From an uncultured Gammaproteobacteria bacterium (GTDB taxonomy: Bacteria; Patescibacteriota; Microgenomatia; UBA10105; UBA927), in the NCBI GenBank assembly GCA_964449675.1, contig CAYVAR010000001.1, positions 44,877 to 108,876 of the forward strand: a stretch of DNA of 64,000 nt, given 5' to 3'. The translations under genes and the position numbers were made by a program. Shown piece by piece: positions 2,947 through 42,934 of the stretch. Below the pieces are notes generated by a model. It did not search any database. It was not told the DNA's origin and worked only from the letters and a program-made list of their open reading frames with translations. Numbering within the stretch: the first letter of the stretch is position 1; each line of letters begins with the position of its first letter.

Positions 2947-3327
2947 ATGCCGGCAACGAAAAAAACTGTAAAAACAAAAAAAGAAGCGAAAAAAGTATCG
3001 CCAAAAGTTAGTCTAAAAAAATCTTCTGGAAAAAAGATTAAAAAAGAGGAGCCAGTGGTACCGGCACCGAGCGAAGAAAAGCAGGTAATTATTGCTCAAT
3101 TTCAGGTGAAACAGGGTGATACCGGTAGTCCCGAAGTACAAGTAGCGCTTCTAACCAAACGCATCGAAAAACTCGTTATGCATTTAAAAACCAATCCATC
3201 AGACAACCATTCTCGCCGGGGACTTTTGGGGATTGTCAGTAAAAGGCGTAGACTTCTAAACTACCTAGAAAAAAAAGACGGAAAACGCTACAAGGAAGTA
3301 GCAGTGAAACTAGGACTCGGCAAGTGA
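2947..3327 (+). CDS. rpsO: 30S ribosomal protein S15 with a Lys-rich N-terminal extension of about 40 aa.
   Basis: [20 protein letters not shown] ... [20 protein letters not shown] matches the conserved S15 core. The gene lies upstream of pnp, the conserved rpsO-pnp order. Confidence 0.85.
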
Positions 3328-3348: not shown

Positions 3349-3451
3349 GATGATAGTGGTAGATGATAGAAGGTGGAAGATAAAAAAGAGCTATTATCAA
3401 TCGTCGATCTTCTATCCTCGACCACTATCTTCAACATTCAACCTTCTATCG
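3349..3451 (+). promoter_or_regulatory. Long imperfect stem-loop in the rpsO-pnp intergenic leader; it may be a pnp autoregulatory or processing hairpin.
   Basis: Nested complementary arms pair GATAGTGGT (3353-3361) with ACCACTATC (3421-3429) and GATAGAAG (3365-3372) with CTTCTATC (3409-3416). GATGATAG units are repeated within the element. Confidence 0.4.
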
Positions 3452-3463
3452 TTTATTAATTGC

Positions 3464-5629
3464 ATGAAAATTGTAAAAAAATCACTTGAACTAAATGGAA
3501 AACCATTGACGCTTGAAGTTGGACGATTTGCCCAGCAGGCAAGCGCTGCTGTGCTTGCCCAGCATGGTGACACAATGGTACTTGCAACGGTTACTGCGTC
3601 AAGTCGCGAAACGACGCTTGATTATTTTCCTCTTTCCGTCGAGTATGTCGAGCGTTTGTACGCAGGGGGACGCATCAAGGGATCCCGGTGGGTCAAGCGC
3701 GAAGGGAGGCCTTCAGATGATGCAGTCCTTGCGGGCCGCATAATCGACCGATCGATACGCCCGCTTTTCCCAAAAACGTATAAGCACGATGTACAGGTTA
3801 TTATTACGGTCTTATCTGTAGACGGTGAAAATGATCCTGATGTATTAGGGTTGGTTGCAACAAGCGCCGCAATAGCTATTTCTCCGATTCCATGGAGTGG
3901 TCCGATCGGAGGCGTTCGTGTGGGATATGTCAAAGATAACGGCAGAAGCGAATTTCTCATAAATCCAACAGTCACGGAACAAGGATTATCTGAATTTGAT
4001 TTTGTCGTCGCAAGTTCAAAAGGAAAAACAGTCATGCTTGAAGGAGGATTTTGTGAAACTCCGGAAGATGTAGTTTATACCGCTGTCCAAAAAGCAAAAG
4101 AAGCAAACGCGAAGATCATTTCATGCATCGAAGATCTTGTCAAAACAGTCGGAAATACGAAGCTTCCCACACCTGTAGCTAGTGCGGCAGACGAACTAAA
4201 AGCCAAGATAATGAAGGATTATAAAAAAGAGATGGACGAGGCTTTTGCCAAAAAAGCCCAAAAGGAATTTGGCGGAGAAGAGATAGGAGAACTTGCCAAA
4301 ACAATCCAAGAAGCGTACGCAAATGAGTACACCCTTAAAGCCATAGAAGATGCCCTGGACACACTCTTTAAAAAACGCGTGAAAGAAGATGTTTTGACCA
4401 AAGGCAAACGATTTGACGGACGAAGTTTAGATGAAATTCGACCGCTTGATGTTGCCGTTGGCATACTTCCTCGTACGCACGGTAGCGCTATGTTTACGCG
4501 TGGACAAACCCAGGCTTTGACCGTTGCAACCCTAGGAACACCAAGCTTAGAACAACTTATAGAAAGCCCAGTTGGAGAAGAATCAAAACGGTATATTCAT
4601 CACTACAGTATGCCGCCCTATTCTGTCGGAGAAACAGGACGCATCGGTACACCATCCAGGCGTGAGATAGGGCATGGTGCTTTGGCTGAGCGCGCACTTT
4701 TATCTGTCATCCCATCAGAAGAAGATTTTCCGTATACCATTCGTTTAGTGAGCGAGATTATGTCCAGTAACGGCTCCACTTCTATGGCTAGTACGTGTGG
4801 ATCGACCCTTGCGCTTATGGACGCTGGAGTACCGATAAAAGAACCAGTCGCTGGTATCTCCATAGGGCTTATGACTGACAAGAAAAAGTTTGTGCTTCTT
4901 ACTGATATCATGGGGATAGAGGATTTCGCGGGCGATATGGACTTTAAAGTGGCTGGAACAAAAAACGGCATTACAGCCATACAGCTCGATATTAAAATCG
5001 ACGGACTGACGGATGAGATAGTTGAACAAACATTGGGTAAGGCAAAAATTGCGCGGATGAAGATACTGGAAAAAATGCTTTCAGTTATCAGTACCCCCCG
5101 TAAAAAACTTTCTCAATACGCGCCAAATGTCAAAGTAGTCAAAATCCCTACGGACAAAATCGGAGAAGTCATTGGTCCGGGTGGGCGAGTTATACGGCAA
5201 ATTATCGCCGTTACCACTGCAACCGTTGATGTCAATGACGATGGATCGGTCGTTATATCGGGAAGTGCTGATGCCGTCGCAAAGGCTGTCGAGTGGGTTG
5301 AAGGGTTGACCAAAGAAGTGCAACCAGATGAAGAATACGAAGGCGAAGTCAAGCGCATACTACCGTTTGGTGCATTTGTCGAAATTCTTCCCGGGAAAGA
5401 AGGCATGGTGCATGTGTCCCAAATGTCTACGAGTTACGTCAACGATCCCAACGATGTCGTAAAGCTTGGTCAAAAAGTGAAGGTTCGGGTAATGGAAATA
5501 GACGATCAACACAGGGTCAATCTCTCAATGCTTTTTGGCGAGGATGCAAAAAAAGCGCCGGTGCGAGAACGTCGAGATTCTTCAGATCGCCCACGGAGAT
5601 CTTTTGATAGAAATAGAAAGAGATATTAA
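3464..5629 (+). CDS. pnp: Polynucleotide phosphorylase (PNPase).
   Basis: Two RNase PH domains, a KH domain and an S1 domain are recognisable, including FTRGQTQAL, the GIEDF-AGDMDFKVAG motif and the KH GPGG motif. The ATG at 3464 is in frame within ORF 3350..5629. Confidence 0.95.
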   Translation: MKIVKKSLELNGKPLTLEVGRFAQQASAAVLAQHGDTMVLATVTASSRETTLDYFPLSVEYVERLYAGGRIKGSRWVKREGRPSDDAVLAGRIIDRSIRPLFPKTYKHDVQVIITVLSVDGENDPDVLGLVATSAAIAISPIPWSGPIGGVRVGYVKDNGRSEFLINPTVTEQGLSEFDFVVASSKGKTVMLEGGFCETPEDVVYTAVQKAKEANAKIISCIEDLVKTVGNTKLPTPVASAADELKAKIMKDYKKEMDEAFAKKAQKEFGGEEIGELAKTIQEAYANEYTLKAIEDALDTLFKKRVKEDVLTKGKRFDGRSLDEIRPLDVAVGILPRTHGSAMFTRGQTQALTVATLGTPSLEQLIESPVGEESKRYIHHYSMPPYSVGETGRIGTPSRREIGHGALAERALLSVIPSEEDFPYTIRLVSEIMSSNGSTSMASTCGSTLALMDAGVPIKEPVAGISIGLMTDKKKFVLLTDIMGIEDFAGDMDFKVAGTKNGITAIQLDIKIDGLTDEIVEQTLGKAKIARMKILEKMLSVISTPRKKLSQYAPNVKVVKIPTDKIGEVIGPGGRVIRQIIAVTTATVDVNDDGSVVISGSADAVAKAVEWVEGLTKEVQPDEEYEGEVKRILPFGAFVEILPGKEGMVHVSQMSTSYVNDPNDVVKLGQKVKVRVMEIDDQHRVNLSMLFGEDAKKAPVRERRDSSDRPRRSFDRNRKRY

Positions 5630-6010
5630 ATATTCGTCATCCCGACCGAAGCGGAGGGATCTTTTTTTAAATGCCTGCAAAGAAACAGTATTACGTTTAT
5701 ATCTTACGTAGCAAATAGGGAGTATTGTACATCGGCATTACAGATAACCTCGTAAAGAGAATCTGGCAACACAAACAGAAATTTGTAAAAGGATTTACTC
5801 AGAAATATAACATTGACCAACTCCTCTACTACGAAATTTTTCAAGATCCACTCACCGCTATTGCTAGAGAAAAACAGATTAAGAAGTGGAGTCGAAAGAA
5901 AAAAGTACTATTAATAATAACTACAAATCCGACATTTCGGGAAATTTTCATTGAAGACATACATTAATAAGTGAGATTCCTCGACTTCGCTCGGAATGAC
6001 AATTAGTATA
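5630..6010. mobile_element. Putative small mobile element: a GIY-YIG nuclease gene bounded by ~28-bp terminal inverted repeats.
   Basis: The left end TTCGTCATCCCGACCGAAGCGGAGGGATC (5632-5660) and the reverse complement of the right end GATTCCTCGACTTCGCTCGGAATGACAA (5978-6005) match at about 22 of 28 positions. Related ORF-less copies occur at 61036-61150 and 63655-63775. Confidence 0.45.
5671..5967 (+). pseudogene. GIY-YIG nuclease family protein (UPF0213/YhbQ-like) interrupted by an in-frame TAG codon.
   Basis: The frame reads MPAKKQYYVYILRSK-TAG(5716-5718)-GVLYIGITDNLVKRIWQH..., so the canonical YVYIL ... LYIG ... GIY-YIG N-terminus is split by a single in-frame amber. The listed ORF 5725..5967 is only the portion after the stop. 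Confidence 0.5.
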
Positions 6011-6023
6011 AGATAGAAGAAGT

Positions 6024-7139
6024 ATGTCAAAACTTACAGATGAAGTTGAAAGTCTTCGAAAAAAACTTACTGAGGTGAAGGTTCCCAAAGAATTAGTCAA
6101 TCGAGTAGAGGGAAATTTAGACGAATTACTCCGGATTGAACACGACATTACCGCACGAGCTCATGTGGAACAGATATTGCGGTATGCAGAGTGGGTGATT
6201 GATCTGCCTTGGAATGTGCGGACGAACGATGTTTTAGATCTGGTGAAAGCACAAGAGATACTCAATAAACATCATTATGGACTTGAACCGGTAAAAGAAA
6301 GAATTTTGGAATACTTAGCAATATTAAAGCTTAATATCGACAAATGGAAAAAAGAGTCAGATGTGAACGTCGCCAGTCGAACTGCGCAGATTGCCAATGA
6401 TGCCAAACTTTCTCACGCAATTTTAGCGCGAAGAGCGCCAATATTATGTCTTGTCGGACTTGTGGGTACTGGAAAGACAACGCTTGCAAAATCGATTGCT
6501 GAGGCGATGGGACGCAGATTTGTGCGTATTCCTTTTGGTGGCATGGCAGATGCCTTGGATCTACGCGGACAGTCACGAGTGCGGCCGGATGCGGAAATCG
6601 GACTTATTCTCAAAGGGCTTCGCTTTGCGGGAAGTAAAAACCCGGTCATCCTTCTTGATGAAATCGATCGTGTCGCAGAACAGGCCAGGGGAGACATAAT
6701 GGGAGTTTTAGTCGAGCTTCTCGATCCCGAACAAAATGCTGCGTTTACTGATCACTATTTGGATTATCCGTTTGATTTATCAGAGGTACTTTTTATCGCA
6801 ACAGCCAATAATACGACAAATATCGCAACAGCCGTCCTTGACAGGCTAGAACCGATCCAAATGCCGTCATATACAGACGAGGAAAAAACAAAAATTGCCC
6901 GGGATTATGTGTTGCCGCAACTTATGAAAGAATCGGGACTCACGAGCGAAAATTTAACCATCGATGCGTCAATTTGGCCAAGGCTTGTTCGTCCGCTCGG
7001 TTACGATGCAGGCATCAGAAGTTTGGAGCGCACGATGAATAGTTTATGCCGTAAGGTAGCCCGGATGATCGTTGACGGCAAAGGAAAAAGCTTCCACGTG
7101 ACGAGTGATAATATAAAAGATTTTATTGATATTTATTAA
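6024..7139 (+). CDS. Lon-like AAA+ ATPase comprising only the helical region and AAA+ module. Both the N-terminal LAN domain and the C-terminal S16 protease domain are absent.
   Basis: The sequence aligns with the Lon middle region: HHYGLEPVKERILEYLAILK matches the Lon DHYGLERVKDRILEYLAV, and Walker A GLVGTGKTT, Walker B ILLDEID, sensor-1 ATAN and arginine-finger LDR are all present. It ends at 7139, 54 bp before rnj, leaving no room for a protease domain. Confidence 0.75.
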   Translation: MSKLTDEVESLRKKLTEVKVPKELVNRVEGNLDELLRIEHDITARAHVEQILRYAEWVIDLPWNVRTNDVLDLVKAQEILNKHHYGLEPVKERILEYLAILKLNIDKWKKESDVNVASRTAQIANDAKLSHAILARRAPILCLVGLVGTGKTTLAKSIAEAMGRRFVRIPFGGMADALDLRGQSRVRPDAEIGLILKGLRFAGSKNPVILLDEIDRVAEQARGDIMGVLVELLDPEQNAAFTDHYLDYPFDLSEVLFIATANNTTNIATAVLDRLEPIQMPSYTDEEKTKIARDYVLPQLMKESGLTSENLTIDASIWPRLVRPLGYDAGIRSLERTMNSLCRKVARMIVDGKGKSFHVTSDNIKDFIDIY

Positions 7140-7192: not shown

Positions 7193-8923
7193 ATGAGATT
7201 TTGGCAAAAATTTAAAAAACAACCAGTGTATCACGGCTCTTCCTCAACCGGTAAAGATACAGTTCGAATTATCCCATTAGGAGGTATAGGAAATGTTACG
7301 AAAAACATGTTTGTCTATGAGTATCGTTATGATGGCAAACTTCGAGATATTTTGATTGTCGATTGCGGCATAGGGTTTCCGGATCCTGAGATGTTTGGAG
7401 TTGATTTAGTCATTCCTGATGTGCGCTATCTTGAAGCAAAAAAAGACCTCATTCGGGGACTCGTATTTACTCACGGACACGACGATCATATCGGAGGTAT
7501 CCCGTATCTTTATAAAAAGTTGGGGAATATACCGATGTGGGGGACTACGCTTACTGCTGCTTTTGCCAATATTAAACTTCGAGAAATCCGATCAACGAAC
7601 AAAGTGACACCAGTGACCTTTGACAAGGTTCTCACGATTGGTCCATTTCGTGTAACATTTGTGCACGTAACTCATTCAGTTCCTGATGCAGCAAACCTCA
7701 TCATTGAAACACCAATAGGAACGTTTTATCACGGAAGCGATTTTAAATTTGACTTTAGTCCGCTGGACGGAAAACTTTCTGAGCTTCACAAAATAACAGA
7801 TGCTGGAAGGCGTGGTGTATTATGTCTTTTGACTGACTCTTTAGGGAGCGAACGGCCTGGGTTTACCCCGTCTGAACAGCGTATTCGTGAAACTATCGAA
7901 CGGGAGATAGAACTTTGTCCCGGTAAACTTCTTTTTACGACCCAATCAAGCAATATTTCACGTATTCAACTTGCTATTGAAATTGCCATTGCTCATGGCA
8001 GACAGATAGCATTTTTGGGTCGAAGCATCGATCAAAATGTCGAAGAGGCAGTCAAGCTCGGCTACATGAAGTTTCGCCGCGAGGCCCTTATCAGCGATCG
8101 AGATTTAAAGCGCTTACCATCGGTCAAACAATTTCTTGTGGTTGCCGGTAGTCAAGGGCAATCGGACTCCGCGCTTTCAAGGATTGCCAATGATAGTCAT
8201 AAATATGTGAGGCTTGTGGAAGGAGATACCGTTGTTTTTTCTGCAGACCCCATACCCGGTCACGAAAATGACGTCAACCGCTTGATTGACCAAATTTACC
8301 GCAAAGGAGCGAGAGTATCCTACTCCGATATCATGGAGGATTTACATGTATCCGGACACGGTAGTCAAGGAGACATGATGCTTATGCTCTCTGCCTTAGG
8401 TCCACGCTATATTTTTCCCATCGGAGGAACCTATAAGCATATGATGCAGTACCGCAGGCTTGCGATGGAGCTCGGGTACAAAAAAAGCGAAATCCTCATT
8501 CCTGAGGATGGACAAGTATTAGAATTTTCTGCTGTAGGTGAGCCAAAGGTGGTCGAAACGATAGAGCTTGAAAATGTGATGATCGATGGCCTAGGAATCG
8601 GCGATGTGGGAAATGTCGTCCTTCGCGATCGGCAAACAATTGCTAAAGAAGGTATCGTTGTCATTGTAGTACCTATAGAAGAATCAACTGGCCGAGTTAC
8701 AGCTGAGCCAGATATTATTTCCCGGGGATTTGTCTACATGAAGGCATCTGGCAGACTCGTTGATCAAGCGAAGCAATTAGTGACGAGGTCGCTTCGACTC
8801 AAAAAGGGGCGCATGATCGATTGGCATTTTGCGAGAAAGCAGGTAGAAGAGAATGTTGGTGTCTTTCTGCGTCGCGAAACCGGCCGCAGCCCCCTCATCG
8901 TTCCTGTAATCGTAGAGGTATGA
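7193..8923 (+). CDS. rnj: Ribonuclease J (metallo-beta-lactamase / beta-CASP family).
   Basis: Contains the THGHDDHIGG motif and the beta-CASP and C-terminal domains. Its length of 576 aa is typical for RNase J. Confidence 0.9.
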   Translation: MRFWQKFKKQPVYHGSSSTGKDTVRIIPLGGIGNVTKNMFVYEYRYDGKLRDILIVDCGIGFPDPEMFGVDLVIPDVRYLEAKKDLIRGLVFTHGHDDHIGGIPYLYKKLGNIPMWGTTLTAAFANIKLREIRSTNKVTPVTFDKVLTIGPFRVTFVHVTHSVPDAANLIIETPIGTFYHGSDFKFDFSPLDGKLSELHKITDAGRRGVLCLLTDSLGSERPGFTPSEQRIRETIEREIELCPGKLLFTTQSSNISRIQLAIEIAIAHGRQIAFLGRSIDQNVEEAVKLGYMKFRREALISDRDLKRLPSVKQFLVVAGSQGQSDSALSRIANDSHKYVRLVEGDTVVFSADPIPGHENDVNRLIDQIYRKGARVSYSDIMEDLHVSGHGSQGDMMLMLSALGPRYIFPIGGTYKHMMQYRRLAMELGYKKSEILIPEDGQVLEFSAVGEPKVVETIELENVMIDGLGIGDVGNVVLRDRQTIAKEGIVVIVVPIEESTGRVTAEPDIISRGFVYMKASGRLVDQAKQLVTRSLRLKKGRMIDWHFARKQVEENVGVFLRRETGRSPLIVPVIVEV

Positions 8924-9032: not shown

Positions 9033-9092
9033 GATCTTTCTTTAGAAGAAAGATAATTACAACCGGCCAGTCAAAAGGGGCCGGTTTTTTGA
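9033..9092 (+). terminator. Tandem hairpins ending in a T-run; an intrinsic terminator after rnj.
   Basis: ATCTTTCTT-tag-AAGAAAGAT is followed by CCGGCC-agtcaaaagg-GGCCGG and then TTTTTT. Confidence 0.55.
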
Positions 9093-9351
9093 TGCATAAA
9101 AAACCGGCACAAACAGAGCTGGTTTTGTTGACAACAGTAGCAAAGCCGGATGCACGCCAAGCTCCAGAAGCACTGAGAAGCCTGCGCGCATCCGGGCAAA
9201 GGTGCTTTGCTACAGTGCAGCATGTGTGCCCGCGCCCGGGTGCGGGCACATTAACAATCTGGTGTGAAAACAGGTTTTCCTGTTGCCCTTTCGGGAAAGA
9301 ACTTATTCTTTTTCGAATGGGTAACAGGAGACCTAAACAAGGAGACTATGA

Positions 9352-10066
9352 GATGAGTACCTTACGAATGTTTTGGGAACTTCTAAGGCGGACTGACGAT
9401 CGTATCGCCCGCGTGACCTTGCGGCTGCCCAAAAGGCTGCAAGGACTGGAGCTGCGCGACGACCTGACGCTTGCCGTAGCCATCACGAGAAGGATTTACG
9501 TGTATGGCGTTCTCGCGCTTTCGGCCTTCCTCGTGGTCTACGTGGCCTACTGGTTGCTCTTTAGCGGGCCACGGACGAGGCTCTCAGACCCAGCCCTCCA
9601 AACCGAGATCCCTACGGCCATCGCTTCACCGACGCCGCGGGTGATTATCGATCCCTGGAGCGGACATGAGTGGTTCTCAGCCGACGAGGCGCGAAACCTC
9701 AGGACCCAGGAGAACGTTATCAACCTGGCATATCTTGAGGACGGTAGCGCCAAGTACAGCGCAGGCTTTAGCGTAGTATTCACCGGCGAGACTCCTTGGG
9801 AGAATGCGGGCAAGCCCTTCGGCGTGAGCGAGCTGAGTGTCGAAGTTACCTCGGTTGCGCTCACCGCCCACGGTCAGCAATATACCCTGAACGTGTGGCA
9901 GCCGTTTGTGCTTTCCGAAAATTCTCAGGAGATCTACGTCGTTGATGCGACAGGCCAGTTGTGGCGGGCGCCACTGGCCGATCTGAGCCTCGTTCCTTTG
10001 GATCAGGTTATCGGCGACCTCCCGGCCCCGATTGCGCCCAACCCCAACCTCAGTTTTACCTACTGA
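9352..10066 (+). CDS. Hypothetical single-pass membrane protein encoded in the high-GC island.
   Basis: The ATG carries an AAGGAGA RBS (MSTLRMFWELL...), one transmembrane segment is present, and codon usage is GC-rich unlike its flanks. The upstream part of ORF 9089..10066 is treated as leader. Confidence 0.5.
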
Positions 10067-10080
10067 AAGGAAGGTATGAG

Positions 10081-11877
10081 ATGTTATTCACCTACAGTCT
10101 TGCATTCGCTGCGGGAGCGGCTGCTGCTGCAGGCCTGTTCGAGCTGTTCAACGGCCGCTTTAAACACCCGGTGAGCGCCGGATTCATCACGGGCGTCCTC
10201 ACCTTCATCGTCAACGCGGGGATCGTGTACTTCGGCATGCCGCCCTTCACCCACTGGCTCGCGGCCGGCTACCCGATTCTGTTCTTCGTGGATTTGGCTA
10301 TCGCTGCGGTCATCGTGGTCATTGACTCGGCGGTAACGTATGAAGAGCACCGCGCGGATGGTTCCGGCGGTTACGTAGCCGCAGGCACGTTCGTCGTGTT
10401 TCTGGTTGTTTGGGGTATGGTCGCCGCAGTGACCCCTCCCGGGGCATTCTGCGACAATCCCGGCTACCAGCGGATGGTCGCGCTCATAAACGTTGCTGAT
10501 AGCGACGCGGCGTTCCCGGACACCAACTTGGACAGTCTGGTGCGGGTTGCCCCGGAGACGGCTATGCTCAAGGCTAGCCGCGCAATCGGCGGCGACGCCA
10601 ACATCGGCTCCTACCTTGAAGTAAACAACCCTTACCTGCAAAAGGTCCAGGGGCGTTGGGTCTATGTTGTAGACCTTAAGGTAAAGGACTGGCGGGCCTT
10701 CGAAACTAAGGGTGCGGTCGTGCCCGGATATATCGTAGTTTCAGCAACGGATCCGCAAGCCGAGGCAGAATTTCGCACCGGCTATGCCATCCGCTATGCG
10801 CCAGACGCGCGCTGGGATCAGGACCTCGACCGGCACGCGTATCTAGGCTTCCTGTTGGGTTCTCCCTACCGCGTGATGGACTTGCGCGGTATGGAAGTTG
10901 ACGAGGAGTGGAACCCTCACTACACGGGCACACTCCTTCGTCATGAAGTAGGATTCGAAGGCAAGGTCGTGGTCGGGATGCTTGACGTCAATCCCCAATC
11001 CGGCGAGATGGCCATGTACACAGTCGGCGAGGTCCCCGAGTGGATCGACAGGATCTGGCCGCTCGAGCTTGTCAAAAGCTACGCAGGTTGGTGGGGTAGT
11101 TATATAGACCACCGGGCATGCGAGCTTCAAGGGGCTGCAGGTCAGCGCGCGATCGACAACACCAACGACGTCGTTACGAGCGCCGGACTCGAGTTTCAAG
11201 TCACGATGACGTCCGTCGGAACCGACCAGTCCCTAACGGAGATTCTCTACGTCGAGCCTCGGACGGGAATCGCCACTCGCTACAAGCTGACCGGCGCCAC
11301 AATCCAGGCTATCGACAACCTCGTTGATGAAGCCAGCCGGGAGATCACCGCCGAAGGTTACGAGCCAGTTGAATGCGAACTCCAGGTGCTTCTGGGCCGC
11401 CAGGTCTGGTACTGCGTCCTGACGGGCCGGGGCGGGGGCGAGGATCTCTCGAGCGGCTCCTACGCGGGGGTGGCCTTTGTCCAAGTGAAGTTTACCTCGG
11501 ATAACACCAAGGTAATCATCGCCGAAACGCTTGAAGAAGCCTACGCCCAGCTCCAGCGACAGATCGCCACGGAAAGTTCCGACGACCCGACCTTGCGCGA
11601 GGCTCAAGAAAAGATCCAAGTGGAAGGCGTGATCGAGCGCAAAGCCAGCATAGGCCAGGACGGTTTCGACACCACTGGTGGAGGTGCTTTCCTGTTCCTA
11701 ATTAAGGCTGACGACGGCAAGACCTACTACTGCCTGGCGCCGACCGCTAGCTGGAATGCGGCGCTCGCACGAGAAGGAGACCGGGTCACAATCACGGCCT
11801 TTCAGGAGCTTGACAAAAGCTACCTGACGGTGATTGATATCGCCATAGTCGGCGCGCCCGACTTCGATCCCAACTAA
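10081..11877 (+). CDS. Hypothetical polytopic membrane protein (about 4 N-terminal transmembrane segments plus a ~450-aa soluble domain) in the high-GC island.
   Basis: The start MLFTYSLAFAAGAAAAAGLF follows a GAAAGGAAGG RBS. GC-rich codons (GCC, CTG, CGC) run throughout. I recognise no domain. Confidence 0.55.
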   Translation: MLFTYSLAFAAGAAAAAGLFELFNGRFKHPVSAGFITGVLTFIVNAGIVYFGMPPFTHWLAAGYPILFFVDLAIAAVIVVIDSAVTYEEHRADGSGGYVAAGTFVVFLVVWGMVAAVTPPGAFCDNPGYQRMVALINVADSDAAFPDTNLDSLVRVAPETAMLKASRAIGGDANIGSYLEVNNPYLQKVQGRWVYVVDLKVKDWRAFETKGAVVPGYIVVSATDPQAEAEFRTGYAIRYAPDARWDQDLDRHAYLGFLLGSPYRVMDLRGMEVDEEWNPHYTGTLLRHEVGFEGKVVVGMLDVNPQSGEMAMYTVGEVPEWIDRIWPLELVKSYAGWWGSYIDHRACELQGAAGQRAIDNTNDVVTSAGLEFQVTMTSVGTDQSLTEILYVEPRTGIATRYKLTGATIQAIDNLVDEASREITAEGYEPVECELQVLLGRQVWYCVLTGRGGGEDLSSGSYAGVAFVQVKFTSDNTKVIIAETLEEAYAQLQRQIATESSDDPTLREAQEKIQVEGVIERKASIGQDGFDTTGGGAFLFLIKADDGKTYYCLAPTASWNAALAREGDRVTITAFQELDKSYLTVIDIAIVGAPDFDPN

Positions 11878-12240
11878 CGTATTCTCCTGTTACCCGAGGG
11901 TTGACTCTCGGTAGAACTATCACACCAGAGTGGAGGACGGACGATGATCCGATTGTCTGCGCGAATTTTGCGCATACGATTTGATCCATTTTCCGTTCCT
12001 CCATAGCCCTCTTCCGATGATTATCGGGACTGATGAGTCGGTCTTTCTACTATATAGGACTACGACGAAAGAGCTATTTTAAATAATGATTACCATAGAT
12101 TAAAGATATAAATAACGTCGACGACGTATATATTTGTCCGGGACTTGGCTAAACGTCATTTTCATACAATCCACCATTTTTCAGTTTAAACGGTTGAACC
12201 AACCTCCAAATCCCTCTATACTAACTGGTACACCATCTTT

Positions 12241-14394
12241 ATGTTTGGAAGAAAGAAAAAGCGCGCGTATAGGAAGCGCAAATCATTTGGCATCAAGCTT
12301 AAAAAGCAGACTGTCTATACGGTCGGGGCTATATGGTTATGGCTTTTTGCGGGAGCTATAACCCTCGCGTTTTTTGGAGAAGGATCAGTGTTATCTACTC
12401 TTCGCGAAGGACTCTTGCAGCACGTCGGTTGGGTCATGTATGGGCTACCGCCGTTTCTCGTCACCTTAAGTTTTCTCTTTTTTAACGTGAAATCAGATAT
12501 AGGGAAACCAAATGTCCCCTTGGGCTTAGGCGTTCTTCTTCTTTCTCTTATAGGCGTCACGCAAGCGGGAACGTTTGGTGAATTTTTGTGGAATATTGTT
12601 TCAAATAACTCCGCAGCTGAGGTAACAATTTTGGTCTATATCGGTCTTTTTATGGTTGGCTTGATCGTCCTTTTCAACACTTCTCTTGACCGATTTATGA
12701 ATATTATCCTTTCTGCGTTTCAAAAAATGGGTGAGTTGCTTGCAGTAGCCGTAGAAAATATTTTTTCTAAAAAGGAAATCCCGCTTTTTGCAAAAGACAA
12801 ACAACTTAAAATAAAAGGTACAGATGATGAAAAGCTATTAGGAAAGGCACCTATGCCGCTTCCTCCGATACTAGGAAAGTCACAAGCGATGGCTGGTGTG
12901 ACATCGACCAAGTCTGATCTTTCGATACACGCACCGCTTGCAAGTTCAAACGACGCGATATGGGAGTATCCACCGTTGACGCTTCTCTCTGATGGTCCTG
13001 GTCAAAAAGCAGATCGCGGTGACATGAGAAAGAATGCATCCATCATAGAAAAAACCCTTGAAGGATTTGGGATAACGGCAAAAGTAACTGAAGTAAATAC
13101 CGGTCCGGCGGTCACGCAGTACGCACTTGAGATAGCATTAGGTACAAAAGTGTCAAAGATTACATCACTTTCAAGTGACCTTGCGCTTGCTCTTGCTGCT
13201 CCCACCGGTCAAGTGCGCATAGAAGCGCCGATACCCGGACGAAGCTTGGTGGGAATTGAAATTCCAAATAGGGGGCTTGAGTTTGTTACCCTTAAACGGA
13301 TGCTTACTTCCGACGTACTTCGTAAGTCAAAAAGTAAACTCGCTGTCGCATTGGGACTTGATGTGTCTGGGAGTCCACTCATCGCAGATATAGGAAAAAT
13401 GCCTCACGTATTGGTAGCCGGAACTACCGGTAGCGGCAAGTCGGTGCTTGTTAATTCGTGGATTTGTTCGCTACTGTTTCGTACTACACCATCGGAAGTA
13501 CGACTTATCTTGGTTGATCCAAAACGAGTGGAACTCACTGGATACAACGGTATACCGCATCTTTTAACTCCGGTCATCGTTGAACCGGATAAAATTCTTT
13601 CCGCCCTTCGCTGGGCGATGACAGAGATGGAAAATCGCTATAAGCAGTTTGCTGAGGTGGGAGTCCGGAATATCGACGGATTCAATGAACTATCCGGATT
13701 TCAAGCGATGCCCTACATTGTGATCCTTATTGATGAACTCGCTGATCTTATGGCGTATGCGCCAGTTGAAGTAGAAGATGCTATTTGTCGCATAGCGCAA
13801 ATGGCTCGAGCAACGGGGATTCATCTCGTATTGGCAACGCAGCGGCCGTCAGTTGACGTTATCACAGGACTTATTAAAGCCAACGTACCTTCTCGTATAG
13901 CCTTTAATGTATCTTCCATGATTGATTCTCGCGTTATTATCGATATGCCGGGAGCTGAAAAACTCCTCGGTCGCGGAGATATGCTGTATGTCCCGCCAGA
14001 CCAGTCAAAACCAAGTAGAATTCAGGGAACGTTTGTTTCAGAGCAGGAAGTTAATAAAGTCGTAGATTTCCTTAAAGTAAAAAATGTGCCTGTGCAGTAT
14101 ACCGAGGAAGTAACAAAGCAACCGCTTACTGGGTGGAAAAGAGGGCTTGCGGTAAACGCTGGAACTGATGGGAAGGATCCGCTTTTTGAAGACGCACTTC
14201 GGCTTATATGCCAGCATGACAAAGCATCAGCGTCACTTCTTCAACGACGTCTTTCTGTTGGGTATGCGCGTGCTGCACGAATTTTGGATCAGTTGGAAGG
14301 TGCCGGTATTATTGGTCCGGGAGAAGGCAGTAAGCCTCGAGATGTCCTCGTAAAAAACGCGGATGATTATCTTGCCCTACAAGCACAACAGTAG
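12241..14394 (+). CDS. ftsK: DNA translocase FtsK/SpoIIIE.
   Basis: N-terminal transmembrane segments, Walker A VAGTTGSGKSV, LILVDPKRVEL and IDELADLM motifs, and a C-terminal gamma domain (LLQRRLSVGYARAARILDQLE) are all present. Confidence 0.9.
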   Translation: MFGRKKKRAYRKRKSFGIKLKKQTVYTVGAIWLWLFAGAITLAFFGEGSVLSTLREGLLQHVGWVMYGLPPFLVTLSFLFFNVKSDIGKPNVPLGLGVLLLSLIGVTQAGTFGEFLWNIVSNNSAAEVTILVYIGLFMVGLIVLFNTSLDRFMNIILSAFQKMGELLAVAVENIFSKKEIPLFAKDKQLKIKGTDDEKLLGKAPMPLPPILGKSQAMAGVTSTKSDLSIHAPLASSNDAIWEYPPLTLLSDGPGQKADRGDMRKNASIIEKTLEGFGITAKVTEVNTGPAVTQYALEIALGTKVSKITSLSSDLALALAAPTGQVRIEAPIPGRSLVGIEIPNRGLEFVTLKRMLTSDVLRKSKSKLAVALGLDVSGSPLIADIGKMPHVLVAGTTGSGKSVLVNSWICSLLFRTTPSEVRLILVDPKRVELTGYNGIPHLLTPVIVEPDKILSALRWAMTEMENRYKQFAEVGVRNIDGFNELSGFQAMPYIVILIDELADLMAYAPVEVEDAICRIAQMARATGIHLVLATQRPSVDVITGLIKANVPSRIAFNVSSMIDSRVIIDMPGAEKLLGRGDMLYVPPDQSKPSRIQGTFVSEQEVNKVVDFLKVKNVPVQYTEEVTKQPLTGWKRGLAVNAGTDGKDPLFEDALRLICQHDKASASLLQRRLSVGYARAARILDQLEGAGIIGPGEGSKPRDVLVKNADDYLALQAQQ

Positions 14395-24053: not shown

Positions 24054-26420
24054 ATGAAACTGCCGGGTGCGATAGCTTCCATTTTTTCCAAAAAACCTGA
24101 ACCAAAAGAGGTGATCCTGTCTCTTCTTCTAGATACCGATGCGGTGTCGGGAGCAATTTGGACGCGCGTAAAAAAAGGGGAAGTATCTGGAAAAAAAACA
24201 ACGCCGTCACTTATAAAAACTGTTAACCGTGATGTATCGCAAGATTTGTGGGAAGAACGATTAAAAGCAGCAGATAGCGCGGTATCGGAGCTAGATGAAG
24301 CAGTTGGAGCGACAAAAATCAACGATGTGGTTTTGGGAGTTCCGGCAGTATATTTAACCCCAGATGGTGATATAGAAAAATCAATACAAAAAGAGATTCG
24401 TCATATAACCTCAACTCTCGATTTAACTCCTATCGGATTTGTGGGTGTGCATCAGGCGATCGCCCATACGCTCAAACGCGATGAGGGAGTACCACCAACT
24501 GTAATTTTGCTTAGTGTTACGAGCGATGCTCTCACCGTAACTTTGTATAAAGTAGGAGTGCTTATCGGACAAAAGATGACAAAAAACGAAGGAGAAGTAG
24601 CGCAAAAACTTGAGCATATCCTCAAAAGCTTTAAAGAACTTGAAATTCTTCCATCACGTATACTTTTGTATGGAAATAATAGGCAAGCTCTTGAGGATAC
24701 ACAAGCAAAACTTCTTCGGTACCCATGGCAGACCAAAGCAAATTTTTTGCACTTTCCAAAAATCGAACTATTACCAACGGATTTTGCTGTGGTTGCTGTA
24801 TCAGTCGCAGGAGCGACAGAGTTATCCCAACAAATGGGTGAAGATATAGAAGAAACATATCCATCTGAAGCCCAAGACACACTTCAAAAACACGAGAACA
24901 TCAATGCAGTACCTTTGAAAGAAGAAACTCCATTGCCAGATGAGGAAGAGAGGAAGATGGGAAGAGAGGAAGATGGGAAGAGAGGAAGATGGGAAGAGAG
25001 AGACAAAGAAAACGAGGAAAATATTGAATCAGAAGACAAGAATGCCCTTGATATTGAAGAGTCAAATGTTACTTTGGTGACGCCTGAAGAGCTGGGATTT
25101 GCGCATGGAGATGGGCTCCATGCTGATGACTATAAGGATAATGCCCAACCACTACCGAAACAATCATCTACTGAAAATAATGGTCCGGAAGACAAAGCTC
25201 ATGAAATGATCACTACAGAAAAGACACCAGCTGTATCATTCTCTCATCTTCCGAAATTTTTTTTCCATCTCCCTATATTACCGAGATCCGCAGTGTTCGC
25301 ACTTTTTGGTTTTATCATCGTGGGTTTTGGAATATTTGGACTTACTGCGTGGTTTATCCCAAAAGTAGCTGTGACGGTTTTTGTCATCCCGCAGCAAGTT
25401 GAGGAGTCAGCCGTCGTGACAATTGAACCAACGGCGACTGTTGTTGACCCACAAAATAAAATTATTCCGGGAAAGAAACAAGAAAAAATAGTAAGCGGCG
25501 AAAAAATAATTCAGGTAACAGGCAAAAAGAAAGTTGGTGAACCTGCAAAAGGAATTGTCACGATATTTAATAAAGCAACAACAAACAAATCGTTCAAAAA
25601 AGGAAGTATCATCGTATCAAATAGTTTGTCATTTACTCTCGATGATGATGTACAAGTGGCCTCGGCAAGTGAAAATTTAATAAGCGGCACAGTGACCTTT
25701 GGGAAAGGAACAGTCGGCATCACCGCATCAGAGATTGGAGGCCAAAGCAATCTTGCATTGGGGAGTGAATTTACTTTTAAAGATATCGCCTCAAGTGTAG
25801 CAATCGCTCGAAACGAAAAAGCACTATCTGGTGGAACAAGTCGCGACGTGACAGTCGTATCGCGTAGTGATTATGATACTCTGACGAAGTCGCTTACTCA
25901 AGATCTCGTAGAGAATGCCAAAAAGGAGCTTGCGACAAGTGTTGAAGGAAGTGAAAAACTTATCGATGAGACAATAAAAACGTCAGTTTCGGAAAAATCT
26001 TTTACCGAAGAACTAGATCAAGAAGCGAGTGAACTTCATGGGAAACTCACCCTCGTTATGTCTGGTATTTCATATAGTGAGCATGACATCGCGTCACTTT
26101 TGTCGTCAGTTGTAGCAGATAAAGTACCACAAGGATATACGGTAGATACGACAAGTGTTACGACATCGATTGAAAATGCACTCATAAAAAAAGATGGCAC
26201 GATAACAGTGTCGACGAGTCTGAAAGGGAGCGCACTTCCTTCTTTAGATATAGAGGAAATAAAAAAGAATATTACCGGAAAAAAACTTGATACATCGCAA
26301 GATTACCTCAAGCGCCTTCCGGGTGTCGGGGGAGCTGAGTTTCGATTCAGATTTTCTCTCTCTAAAGATAAACTTCCTGCCAATAGCCACAATGTTTCGA
26401 TATCGATAGCAATACAGTAA
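24054..26420 (+). CDS. Large hypothetical membrane protein: an N-terminal cytoplasmic domain, an acidic repeat linker, one transmembrane segment and a beta-rich extracytoplasmic C-terminal domain.
   Basis: 788 aa. A single transmembrane segment lies near residue 420 (FALFGFIIVGFGIFGLTAWFI). The linker contains the EEDGKRG tandem repeat. There is no LPXTG motif. Confidence 0.5.
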   Translation: MKLPGAIASIFSKKPEPKEVILSLLLDTDAVSGAIWTRVKKGEVSGKKTTPSLIKTVNRDVSQDLWEERLKAADSAVSELDEAVGATKINDVVLGVPAVYLTPDGDIEKSIQKEIRHITSTLDLTPIGFVGVHQAIAHTLKRDEGVPPTVILLSVTSDALTVTLYKVGVLIGQKMTKNEGEVAQKLEHILKSFKELEILPSRILLYGNNRQALEDTQAKLLRYPWQTKANFLHFPKIELLPTDFAVVAVSVAGATELSQQMGEDIEETYPSEAQDTLQKHENINAVPLKEETPLPDEEERKMGREEDGKRGRWEERDKENEENIESEDKNALDIEESNVTLVTPEELGFAHGDGLHADDYKDNAQPLPKQSSTENNGPEDKAHEMITTEKTPAVSFSHLPKFFFHLPILPRSAVFALFGFIIVGFGIFGLTAWFIPKVAVTVFVIPQQVEESAVVTIEPTATVVDPQNKIIPGKKQEKIVSGEKIIQVTGKKKVGEPAKGIVTIFNKATTNKSFKKGSIIVSNSLSFTLDDDVQVASASENLISGTVTFGKGTVGITASEIGGQSNLALGSEFTFKDIASSVAIARNEKALSGGTSRDVTVVSRSDYDTLTKSLTQDLVENAKKELATSVEGSEKLIDETIKTSVSEKSFTEELDQEASELHGKLTLVMSGISYSEHDIASLLSSVVADKVPQGYTVDTTSVTTSIENALIKKDGTITVSTSLKGSALPSLDIEEIKKNITGKKLDTSQDYLKRLPGVGGAEFRFRFSLSKDKLPANSHNVSISIAIQ
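24951..24998 (+). repeat. Perfect tandem repeat, 3 x 16 bp (AGGAAGATGGGAAGAG), inside a coding sequence.
   Basis: Directly visible in the sequence. It encodes the EERKMGREEDGKRGRWEE low-complexity stretch. Confidence 0.6.
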
Positions 26421-40363: not shown

Positions 40364-42934
40364 ATGACAAAACCGCAACCACCAAAAGGAGTAACACCCA
40401 GTAGAGCTGAAGGTGAACCATCAGGTCAACCTTTTGTTTCTCAAGCTGATCAACCACTTACCCCCCCCAATGCCGCCGCACGTATCCCGGAGGATTCTCC
40501 TCAAGCGAAAGACGCGCGAGATGCGCTGGATACTTTAGCTACACGAGCCACACCAAGCGATATACCAGATGACCTTGCAGATTTTTTTACTGATTCTCCT
40601 GGAACAGCTTTAGACACTGAACAAATTTTAAAAGATGTCCAAGAAGCAAGACGGGATCCATATGAAAGACGTAGAGAAATAAATCAAGCAGTTGCCGATC
40701 CCGAGCATGCCATAACAAAAAAAGCTAGAGCTCTTGGCGCATCGCTATGGGCGCACCCGGGGGATGAAGCAGTCGTCAGCGAAGCGGTTGCGTTTTTAGG
40801 TGAAAACATGAGAGTTGCTCTTCAAGAGCCTGGACAATTGGGCGTGGGCGATATGATCGGCTTGCTAAAAACGGAATTAGGTGAACTTGAAAGCGGGCAG
40901 AGAAGTATTTATAGAAAATTGTCTGATTTTGAGGCGACTGCAGAAGTTGGAGCAGAACGAAGGACTGGCCAGCAAACGGTTACGGCAACTAAAGCGACGC
41001 TCCTGTCTATCTCCGAAGCAGCATTTCAATCAGAAGATTTGACTGCTAATAATTTGCATCTTGCAATTTCCGCATTTGAGGCAGCGCAGGTCGATATGAT
41101 ATCTGCTGAACCGGTATGGGCGGTTGATACGATGGCACGCGCAATTGAAAAAGCAGATATAAACAATCCGGCAATAAGACATGAGCTTGTCGGGATGAAA
41201 ACTAAAAATATCCTCCAAACAACCATGGACATGGATGCTCGTGCAAAAGATGAACAGCCCGAGGCGCTTACGGCGCGAGAAATAATACTTAAAAGATCAC
41301 TCGAAGCACAACACATAAATGACCAAATCAAAGAAGCTGCACGACTAGAGGCAGAAAGGGTAGCAAATGCAGAGAAGCTCGCGCGCGCGCTGGAAAGGAA
41401 AATGGCAGCAGCAGTGTCTGACGGAATGACGCAATTTTCCTATCACTTTACCGGAGGAGATGATTATCCTGTTCGATTTACCACCAGTAGCGACGGATCC
41501 GGTATCCTACGAGGTGTTTTAGAAGATGACTATCAGATGTTTGGTGAGGTTAGTCAAAATCATAGTCTTGGAGGAGTGAATGGATATCTTCAGGTATTGG
41601 AAAATATTCTTGAAACACCCGGGTTTGAGGATCGTCTTGTGGAAAAAACAGTTGGAAAGTATTGGAGTGATCCGGCCGGTAAAAGCCGTGAGGATTACAA
41701 GCGCGAAGGGAGAGAAAACGAATGGAACATGTATATGCAGCAACAGGTCCGTATCGAAGTCTATGGAAATGCTCTTGGTATACTTTTTGGAGCGGTAAAT
41801 GAAGAAGGTCCTCATATGAGTGAGGATAGACGGGCACTGATATTGCGACGGTCTCTGGAGGTACTTGGCGGCGGGAGGTCATTGGAACAACTTATTTCAG
41901 GTAGAGGTGAGCTGTCACCGGAGATGAAAATGGTCCGGAAAACACTTACAGAATATATCAAAAATCCTTTTGGCCGAGAGGAAAAAAAGAGAGACGACAG
42001 CGAATCTGTGGCAGCCAGACGAAAAGGGAGACTCAGGACGCTCAAAGATTATGCAGCGCAGGCAGATACTTCAGTGAGTGACAGGCGCAGGCGGAAACAG
42101 GAAGAACTTAGACAAAAACAAAAAGAAAAAGAGGAGCGGCGAGATCGACTGACGGCAAAGAGAACGAAGTCTCAAGAAGCACTTCGGGCTATAGAAAAAG
42201 TGAGAGTTGATATGCGTGCGTTAAAAGAAAAAGCCGCAAGACTAGGACAACTATCATACGCTCCGGTAGAAGAATTTATCACGGTTACTCCAAATGATAA
42301 CGCAGCAGGAGATCCGCTTGTTGATGTAGCTATAAACGAAGATAGATTTAGGATGCGGGAACAAGAAATTGCGCAATTGCGAGAGCAGCTAACTGCGGAG
42401 CATGTTGAAAGTCCGGACGAAATGCGTGCGACGCTCGCACGGCTTGAAACCGATCAGGAATTTGTTCAAGCGATGAGGCCTTCTGTGCAACGAGTAAATG
42501 GTCCAGCGTACCAAGGTACAAAAGAACAAAGAGGAGGGTTTTTGGGAGTTGGCAAGAAGAGACTTGGTGCTATTGCCGCAACTGCATTTGATGAAATTAA
42601 ACCATTAAGCAAACAAGAAGAATTACCCACTTATTTTTCACGAGAGATTGATGATTCTCAACGCAGTATATTTCTTGCACCAGAAAGAGCAAAAACACTT
42701 GATGATCTACGCGGGGCTTTAGAAATACAGTTAGCAGCAGATGACGTTACGGTCATAGCAGGAGACATTGAAACTGTCGAAGCAGAACTTTCCGGGAGAA
42801 GAGCTAGAGGAGCGACGCGATTTGAAAAACACCGAAATGACTTATCAAATGCGGTTAAGGGTGCCGCTCGAGTATACGTGAAAGACCAACTCTACCAGGC
42901 TTTATATCAACAGCATCGGATTTCATCGACATAA
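40364..42934 (+). CDS. Large acidic, coiled-coil-rich hypothetical protein of 856 aa.
   Basis: Long ORF with GC above its surroundings, no transmembrane segment or signal peptide, and no motif I recognise. Confidence 0.5.
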   Translation: MTKPQPPKGVTPSRAEGEPSGQPFVSQADQPLTPPNAAARIPEDSPQAKDARDALDTLATRATPSDIPDDLADFFTDSPGTALDTEQILKDVQEARRDPYERRREINQAVADPEHAITKKARALGASLWAHPGDEAVVSEAVAFLGENMRVALQEPGQLGVGDMIGLLKTELGELESGQRSIYRKLSDFEATAEVGAERRTGQQTVTATKATLLSISEAAFQSEDLTANNLHLAISAFEAAQVDMISAEPVWAVDTMARAIEKADINNPAIRHELVGMKTKNILQTTMDMDARAKDEQPEALTAREIILKRSLEAQHINDQIKEAARLEAERVANAEKLARALERKMAAAVSDGMTQFSYHFTGGDDYPVRFTTSSDGSGILRGVLEDDYQMFGEVSQNHSLGGVNGYLQVLENILETPGFEDRLVEKTVGKYWSDPAGKSREDYKREGRENEWNMYMQQQVRIEVYGNALGILFGAVNEEGPHMSEDRRALILRRSLEVLGGGRSLEQLISGRGELSPEMKMVRKTLTEYIKNPFGREEKKRDDSESVAARRKGRLRTLKDYAAQADTSVSDRRRRKQEELRQKQKEKEERRDRLTAKRTKSQEALRAIEKVRVDMRALKEKAARLGQLSYAPVEEFITVTPNDNAAGDPLVDVAINEDRFRMREQEIAQLREQLTAEHVESPDEMRATLARLETDQEFVQAMRPSVQRVNGPAYQGTKEQRGGFLGVGKKRLGAIAATAFDEIKPLSKQEELPTYFSREIDDSQRSIFLAPERAKTLDDLRGALEIQLAADDVTVIAGDIETVEAELSGRRARGATRFEKHRNDLSNAVKGAARVYVKDQLYQALYQQHRISST

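Follow-up and report, generated by a model that had tools for sequence, protein, structure and literature searches.

Is a Lon homologue that ends at the point where the protease domain would begin a broken gene, one half of a divided enzyme or an ATPase in its own right? The question is raised by an open reading frame (ORF), here called lonAAA, at 6024..7139 on the + strand of a 64,000-nt stretch of DNA (the window, by which we mean that whole stretch: contig CAYVAR010000001.1 of GenBank assembly GCA_964449675.1, positions 44,877 to 108,876), which is labelled 'uncultured Gammaproteobacteria bacterium' and placed by GTDB among the Patescibacteriota. The ORF list and the sequence give a protein of 371 amino acids (aa), running from ATG to TAA. 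The original prediction took this protein for a Lon homologue cut down to its AAA+ module, with neither the N-terminal LAN domain nor the S16 protease domain, and that description was borne out by Pfam, the model TIGR00763, PDB alignments and an AlphaFold2 model. As to its nature, three possibilities had been named: a decaying pseudogene, a repurposed unfoldase or chaperone, and one half of a split Lon. We find that lonAAA belongs to a conserved family that is under purifying selection, has a single origin and is widespread among several lineages of the ultra-small bacteria of the candidate phyla radiation (CPR), and we consider it probable that the product is a functional, stand-alone, non-proteolytic ring ATPase, an ancient derivative of LonA that remodels its substrates.

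A LonA module without its flanking domains

By its sequence, the protein holds LonA from the N-terminal three-helix bundle (NTD3H) through the AAA+ lid and no other part of Lon. NTD3H was defined as residues 253-305, lying atop the ATPase ring, in Y. pestis Lon as resolved by cryo-electron microscopy (PMC7239648). The parts of the ORF are listed here; for residues above 136, adding 211 gives the numbering of E. coli and Y. pestis Lon, with a one-residue shift past the sensor-1 region.

6024..7139, + strand: gene for the 371-aa LonA-derived AAA+ ATPase, NTD3H plus large and small AAA+ subdomains (Pfam, NCBIfam, PDB, AlphaFold2, Foldseek)
6030..6203, + strand: three NTD3H-like helices, residues 3-60, corresponding to Y. 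pestis Lon 253-305 (TIGR00763, alignment to 6v11 and 3m6a, model)
6333..6431, + strand: lineage-variable insertion, residues 104-136 (~30 aa), after the first AAA+ helix and before strand beta-1 (gap against Lon in PDB alignments)
6456..6479, + strand: Walker A GLVGTGKT, residues 145-152, with K151 equivalent to Lon K362 (alignments)
6567..6602, + strand: pore-loop 1, GQSRVRPDAEIG, residues 182-193 (alignment to 6v11 and 3m6a, family statistics)
6648..6668, + strand: Walker B ILLDEID, residues 209-215, with D212/E213 equivalent to Lon D423/E424 (invariant)
6798..6809, + strand: sensor-1 ATAN, residues 259-262, with N262 equivalent to Lon N473 (invariant)
6843..6845, + strand: Arg finger R274 within LDRLE, equivalent to Y. 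pestis Lon R484 (D273/R274 invariant)
6927..7088, + strand: Lon-type lid, the small AAA+ subdomain, Pfam Lon_lid at residues 302-355 (Pfam)
7017-7019, + strand: sensor-2 R332 within GIRSLER, equivalent to Lon R542 (G330/R332 invariant)

Walker A, Walker B, sensor-1, the Arg finger and the start in the helical linker were thus all present as had been claimed; the altered pore-loop 1, the GLVG form of Walker A (non-canonical, in place of GPPG) and the ~30-aa insertion at 104-136 go beyond that earlier description. Pfam matched AAA at 141-278 besides Lon_lid, and detected no Lon_C (PF05362) and no LAN (PF02190) on the 371-aa protein. The match to TIGR00763 ('endopeptidase La') was confined to positions 252-570 of the 795 in the model, at 326.9 bits where the curated cut-off is 608.05, and NF008053 likewise scored below its cut-off (278.3 against 891); among the curated models of Pfam and NCBIfam, none is dedicated to a protease-less Lon ATPase family. 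The top PDB sequence matches were LonA chains, with residues 137-370 aligned to E. coli Lon 348-581, and residues 5-104 aligned with the helical region that precedes the ATPase in the PDB sequences of B. subtilis and Y. pestis Lon. This N-terminal part includes Y54 and W57, equivalent to Lon Y294 and W297 and conserved in an alignment of 107 family members, and the motif HHYGLEP at residues 83-89. At the other end, the last residue falls in the alignment on the aromatic residue of the linker between the Lon domains, that is, on the boundary between AAA+ and protease. The insertion before strand beta-1 ranges from ~0 to ~130 aa across the family (alignment columns 501-640).

The predicted fold is complete

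The AlphaFold2 model, built on the 107 family sequences, had a mean pLDDT of 86.4 and a pTM of 0.82, and pLDDT fell below 50 only at residues 118-135, inside the variable insertion. Its helices 3-17, 22-38 and 42-60 correspond to NTD3H, and strands at 241-243 and 248-250, placed before the sensor-1 strand, are modelled as the pre-sensor-1 (PS1) beta-hairpin that marks the HCLR clade; the corresponding stretch, FTDHYLDYPFDLS, aligns without gaps to the PS1 beta-hairpin of Lon, with F241, D243, D247 and P249 invariant. When the model was compared with the PDB by Foldseek, the top matches were LonA and LONP1 (E ~1e-29, ~360 aligned columns, query-normalised TM-scores of 0.72-0.83), and 6n2i, the AAA+ fragment of E. 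coli Lon on its own, reached a target-normalised TM-score of 0.88 at 39% identity. The modelled fold is complete and is exactly NTD3H plus AAA+ large plus AAA+ small subdomains.

Neither missing domain is encoded nearby

We covered 84 kb of the 189-kb source contig and 22 further loci that carry family members, each with 6-10 kb of flanking sequence per side, or less where a contig ended. The 64-kb window has no S16 or LAN coding sequence, and an additional 10 kb downstream of it has no Lon_C. Twelve canonical Lons supplied LAN and S16 queries for tblastn, which gave no match at E <= 0.01 in the 393 kb made up of the window and the 22 family loci, while the same queries, as a positive control, matched 67-68 canonical lon loci (67 for S16, 68 for LAN). 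Nor does any peptidase Pfam family occur among the called neighbours in the annotated neighbourhoods of related loci.

A frameshift or contig error that conceals a contiguous protease domain was considered and rejected: the S16 regions of three, and then of 12, canonical Lons matched nothing in the window, tblastn found no Lon_C similarity downstream of lonAAA in any frame, and the copy is not degenerate. The stop codon of lonAAA (7137-7139) is followed by the ATG of rnj at 7193, a gap of 53 nt rather than the 54 bp first reported, which leaves no space for the missing domain.

A conserved family of short Lon ATPases in Patescibacteria

Comparison with orthologues showed that the short architecture and its end point are shared by relatives. 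A first database search returned at least 120 clusters at 75-100% identity, those listed being all 355-393 aa long and carrying AAA and Lon_lid without Lon_C. A profile search returned at least 119 short proteins, further to these or overlapping with them, at 46-82% identity and 347-480 aa, plus two of 669 and 679 aa. Among the matches listed in both searches, 239 of 240 have AAA and Lon_lid without Lon_C. The homologues came from NCBI, JGI, ENA and Logan assemblies, and more than 200 clusters, of 347-480 aa and in one case 669 aa, share both architecture and C-terminal end point. In a library of 50%-identity representatives, the short relatives all end 41-46 aa past sensor-2; the canonical Lons of the same library continue for 230-290 aa beyond it and have the S16 serine motif.

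Four Gottesmanbacteria orthologues have intact frames with no stop codons, and among them nonsynonymous divergence (pN) was 0.17-0.20 against a synonymous divergence (pS) of 0.77-0.89; we give pN/pS and not dN/dS because synonymous sites are saturated. The residues of ATP binding and hydrolysis are intact: K151, D212/E213, N262, R274 and R332 are invariant in the 107 aligned members, as are G145, G148 and G150, with T152 in at least 90%, and the catalytic ATPase residues including T152 are invariant too once canonical Lons join the alignment. In a distance-based (neighbour-joining) tree of the NTD3H and AAA+ region, each of the 100 bootstraps kept 22 short forms (lonAAA and 21 others) together as one clade, separate from 36 canonical LonA. 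Within the family, sub-clade A, which holds lonAAA, has the Walker A motif GL[VA]GTGKT and a C-terminal residue that is usually aromatic, and sub-clade B has G[LIV]QG[VI]GKT and C-termini such as ...GPLS and ...GIVS; GLVGTGKT accounts for 185 and GLAGTGKT for 25 of 221 members.

These results bear directly on the suggestion that lonAAA is a pseudogene, a truncated gene call or an assembly artefact of a normal lon. At 371 aa it is less than half the length of LonA, and its NCBIfam score lies under the family cut-off, both of which suit such a remnant; against this, the same end points recur in hundreds of independent assemblies from all the sources named above, orthologue frames are intact under strong purifying selection, and the 53-nt gap to rnj contains, and is followed by, nothing resembling Lon_C in any frame. 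We give this explanation practically no credence. The decaying pseudogene of the original prediction goes with it, being contradicted by the four intact frames, by pN far below a saturated pS, by the end point common to more than 200 clusters and by the conserved ATPase residues.

The source names of family members include Candidatus Gottesmanbacteria, Shapirobacteria, Levybacteria, 'Microgenomates group', Saccharimonadales and Dojkabacteria, and NCBI names the present protein 'AAA family ATPase [Candidatus Gottesmanbacteria bacterium]'. The metagenome-assembled genomes (MAGs) among these sources are incomplete, and a few carry plainly wrong bin labels. Six loci of TPA_asm MAGs (L003-L005, L008, L009 and L011) combine the family gene with Patescibacteria-type gene content under the label 'uncultured Gammaproteobacteria bacterium', and other family members are labelled Methylomirabilota or Sulfotelmatobacter; all three labels are probably taxonomic mislabels or the result of mis-binning.

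One cultivated Saccharibacterium for which transposon-sequencing (Tn-seq) data exist, Southlakia epibionticum, has a hypothetical gene next to pnp, followed by rnj and then ftsK, with no lonAAA at the pnp-rnj locus and no K01338 (lon); its sole Pfam match to Lon_C is an Mg-chelatase-type (ChlI family) ATPase. Having neither canonical lon nor lonAAA, it makes the Tn-seq data uninformative on essentiality or function of the gene.

Some relatives are extended by low-complexity sequence. Q/P-rich N-termini of up to ~400 aa occur in P0138, P0142, P0129 and P0151, and S/N-rich C-termini of ~200 aa in P0208 and P0209; these extensions occupy the places of the LAN and S16 domains of LonA. Pfam finds no LAN domain in the family relatives with extended N-termini. 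We considered whether the tails of P0208 and P0209, which belong to clade B, might be a degenerate protease, and rejected this, as they are S/N-rich, of low complexity and without a Pfam match.

Pore-loop 1 has been rewritten

Canonical LonA is nearly invariant both at Walker A (GPPG[VT]GKT) and at pore-loop 1 (RGHRRTY[VI]GA[LM]PG), whose Y398/I399 pair grips the translocating polypeptide in Lon (PMC7239648). In lonAAA, Y398 is replaced by R187 and I399 by P188, and the family consensus reads RGQSR-x-[R/F/H/Q]-P-D-A-E-[P/I/V]-G. At the Y398-equivalent position the 221 members have R in 162, F in ~27, H in 15, Y in 2 and other residues in the remainder, and the I399-equivalent is Pro in ~215 of 221; S184, R185, P188, D189, A190 and E191 are each found in at least 90% of the 107-member alignment. 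So strong a conservation of the new loop indicates that it is functional, with a different chemistry. The network that supports the pore loop is partly retained (Y54/W57 for Y294/W297, R185 for R396, D247 for E458).

The change from Tyr-Ile/Val to Arg-Pro in most members argues against processive threading of polypeptides, and hence against the idea that the protein feeds a separate protease; from the alignments, loss of the pore-loop aromatic in the lineage of lonAAA argues against a classical polypeptide-threading unfoldase. Of the repurposed unfoldase or chaperone that had been proposed, it is the repurposed ATPase that is best supported, and the classical threading unfoldase that is disfavoured.

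The same residues enter into the idea of a two-component protease, in which lonAAA would supply the unfoldase of a split Lon, or would resemble ClpX or HslU in serving a peptidase encoded elsewhere. ClpX and HslU, of the HCLR clade, do pair with separately encoded peptidases; the end of the protein falls exactly at the Lon AAA+/protease linker; and the last residue is Y, W or F in 191 of 221 members (86%), a possible docking tail. However, that terminal aromatic may be a structural remnant, because it lines up with the aromatic residue in the interdomain linker of canonical Lon, and although Phe is kept at the pore-loop aromatic position in ~12%, the threading aromatic is replaced by Arg, His, Gln and others in most members, lonAAA included. 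Compared with Lon, the alignments show no inserted IGF-like docking loop on the lid side. No S16 was found in 74 kb around the gene on the source contig or in the stretches covered at the 22 loci, and the annotated neighbourhoods are without any peptidase gene. We think a two-component protease unlikely, and in its split-Lon form, as originally raised, it finds no local support in the window, in the 10 kb beyond it or at the 22 loci, all of them free of S16 and LAN.

A proposed course of events and mode of action

Under the reading that we favor, that of a non-proteolytic remodelling ATPase, an ancestor within Patescibacteria would have lost the LAN domain and S16 peptidase of LonA and would have retained precisely the NTD3H and AAA+ module. 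The product is predicted to assemble into a Lon-like hexamer and to hydrolyse ATP. Its NTD3H collar and rewritten pore-loop 1 (SRxRPDAE versus RRTY[I/V]GA) may then bind a substrate and remodel it with no degradation, an activity that would be of the chaperone or disassembly type and not processive threading into a protease chamber.

Three points weigh against this. In LonA, the protease ring contributes to hexamer assembly. Some ~12% of family members, mainly those with YFP or FFP loops such as P0138 and P0142, retain Phe at the aromatic position, so that threading is still possible for the family as a whole. Lastly, the neighbours of the gene, which are mostly RNA-decay genes with groES-groEL in two loci and a UDG gene in two others, point to no single class of substrate.

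Relation to known Lon proteins and other AAA+ ATPases

LonA proteins (TIGR00763, MEROPS S16; E. coli, Y. pestis, B. subtilis, human LONP1) share with lonAAA the NTD3H, the AAA+ domain with its PS1 beta-hairpin and the Lon lid, at 39-48% identity over the module and with the same Walker A/B, sensor-1, Arg-finger and sensor-2 residues. What LonA has and lonAAA lacks are the LAN/PUA-like N domain, the long coiled-coil helix and the S16 Ser-Lys peptidase; conversely, lonAAA differs in having GLVG rather than GPPG, Arg-Pro rather than Tyr-Ile/Val, a variable insertion before beta-1 and a score of about half the TIGR00763 cut-off. With four LonA-defining features missing (LAN, S16, the pore-loop aromatic and the curated score), the protein is a descendant of the LonA ATPase that should not be called a Lon protease. 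Labels such as 'ATP-dependent Lon protease' (JGI) and 'ATP-dependent protease La' are accordingly misleading, overstate proteolytic capacity and need correcting.

Lon is defined as one chain that joins an AAA+ motor to an S16 peptidase, and a recent classification has all Lons carrying both domains in a single chain (PMC9569914). Of natural 'half-Lons', LonC is the only one described; its peptidase is retained, and its ATPase module is inactive (PMC3391209, PMC13069640). The lonAAA family is its mirror image in that each gave up one activity: on the evidence of its motifs it appears to be the converse, a Lon motor without peptidase or N-domain. Our search of a literature library returned no paper that ties Lon to Patescibacteria, CPR or Saccharibacteria, and none on a protease-less Lon. 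The family is retained across several classes of Patescibacteria, in minimal genomes where the genes that are kept are usually important. It offers a natural test case for the chaperone or remodelling activity, independent of proteolysis, that has long been discussed for the Lon ATPase, as well as for a Lon ring that lacks the substrate-gripping Tyr.

The laboratory construct 6n2i is an engineered truncation of E. coli Lon to its AAA+ part at nearly the same boundaries, whereas the truncation in lonAAA is natural and conserved. Like ClpX and HslU, lonAAA is a stand-alone HCLR AAA+ ATPase of similar size with no fused peptidase; unlike lonAAA, for which none of these was found, ClpX and HslU have a GYVG aromatic pore loop, dock through an IGF loop or C-terminal tail and usually have the partner gene (clpP, hslV) nearby. 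RuvB belongs to the same AAA+ clade and has no specific similarity to lonAAA beyond the AAA+ core, so that it serves as an analogy only. With its winged-helix domain and its partners RuvA and RuvC, RuvB shows that the HCLR clade can yield motors that do not act on proteins.

Genomic neighbourhood and a possible link to RNA decay

On one strand, the window has rpsO and pnp followed, after a small GIY-YIG insertion, by lonAAA and rnj and, beyond a high-GC insertion, by ftsK. The conserved genes among them, and the state of the gene pair at other loci (labelled L001 and so on), are as follows.

2947-3327, + strand: rpsO (translation, tblastn synteny)
3350-5629, + strand: pnp, encoding PNPase (translation, tblastn synteny, Pfam in related loci)
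7193..8923, + strand: rnj, encoding RNase J, 53 nt past the lonAAA stop
12241..14394, + strand: ftsK, the end of the conserved pnp-lonAAA-rnj-ftsK block (Pfam, synteny)
rnj as immediate downstream neighbour: the window, L001-L003, L005, L007-L009, L012, L083, L086-L088
rnj 3 kb downstream: L010
ftsK directly next: L085
lonAAA divergent from groES-groEL: L006 (7742-11017), L011 (7869-11020)
UDG gene next: L010, L016

Loci of Microgenomates and Saccharimonadales repeatedly show a block of the form (dnaK-dnaJ-)nusA-infB-DHH-rpsO-pnp-lonAAA-rnj-ftsK. Directly downstream of lonAAA, 13 of the 18 informative loci, which come from both groups and have proteins at 50-80% identity, carry rnj, and the lonAAA-rnj pair stays intact even where genes have been inserted between pnp and lonAAA (L083, L087, L088). 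No terminator-like site was found within the 53-nt gap between the two genes, and lonAAA is probably co-transcribed with rnj, often also with pnp.

This arrangement invites the view that lonAAA is a motor of RNA decay, a ring ATPase that would act on RNA or ribonucleoprotein (RNP) together with RNase J and PNPase, in the manner of a degradosome, and not on free proteins. In the window the gene has pnp before it and rnj after it on one strand, with no terminator-like site in the gap to rnj; rnj follows immediately in those 13 of 18 loci, and the pair outlasts insertions after pnp; a DHH family gene (PF01368), rpsO and pnp lie upstream in related loci; the pore-loop Tyr has become Arg; and RuvB, a nucleic-acid motor, is also of the HCLR clade. 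Yet the order pnp...rnj-ftsK may be inherited synteny (Bacillus has a similar order), the linkage is broken in L006, L011, L016 and L085, and in compact CPR genomes short intergenic gaps carry little information. Acidic residues, D189 and E191, flank the pore-loop Arg, and Pfam detected no RNA-binding domain in the 371-aa protein. The case for an RNA-decay motor comes down to the gene order, which may be inherited, and the Tyr-to-Arg change, and we judge it quite unlikely. Its most specific form, in which the Lon ring has been turned into an ATP-driven remodeller of RNA or RNP and the energy component of a Patescibacteria-specific RNase J/PNPase decay machine, with Tyr-to-Arg as the signature, strikes us as very unlikely. 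Should the adjacency to rnj and pnp be functional, it would bear on the organisation of RNA decay in CPR bacteria.

As for heat-shock control and the groES-groEL loci, a search for the CIRCE inverted repeat allowing up to 3 mismatches gave 0 sites in the window, and no such repeat was seen by eye in the groES-lonAAA intergenic regions of L006 and L011, where no pattern search was run. A role as an anti-phage defence ATPase was rejected as well: PADLOC gives only generic AAA matches of at most 27 bits, and the gene context is of the housekeeping kind.

Insertions and other features of the window

Between pnp and lonAAA the window has a GIY-YIG nuclease gene of 80-98 codons (in the stretch 5636-6000, its frame starting at the ATG at 5671), in which an in-frame TAG at 5716-5718 separates the motifs GIY and YIG. 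Imperfect inverted repeats of 26 nt stand on its two sides (5636-5661 and 5975-6000, 21 of 26 positions identical by local alignment). The gene is missing at the equivalent position in L001-L003, which suggests a small mobile insertion; we regard it as probably that, and possibly as decaying. At the same place, in a Saccharimonadales MAG (L083, 8712-9824; L084, 1415-2527), a TIR-domain gene (CAP12-PCTIR_TIR) and a small ORF lie on the opposite strand between pnp and lonAAA, and may represent insertion of a defence gene into the conserved block.

Between rnj and ftsK, at ~9400-11900, the GC fraction rises to 0.58-0.64 where that of the genome is ~0.42. The two ORFs of this island (9089-10066 and 9961-11877; 325 and 638 aa) match nothing in Pfam or NCBIfam, and rnj and ftsK are adjacent without the island in L002, L003, L005, L007, L009 and L012. 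The island is either foreign DNA or an assembly chimera.

Proteins of ~1000-1400 aa with two or three tandem Lon AAA+ modules (P0122-P0136, P0145) were met among the Lon-like sequences; P0122 is named Candidatus Dependentiae, and some also have an S16 domain (only that of P0145 has Pfam confirmation). This tandem architecture is unusual and is unrelated to the window. Two further ORFs of the window, at 24054-26420 (788 aa) and 40364-42934 (856 aa), are without Pfam or NCBIfam match, and an equivalent ORF of ~790 aa is located after alaS in L001.

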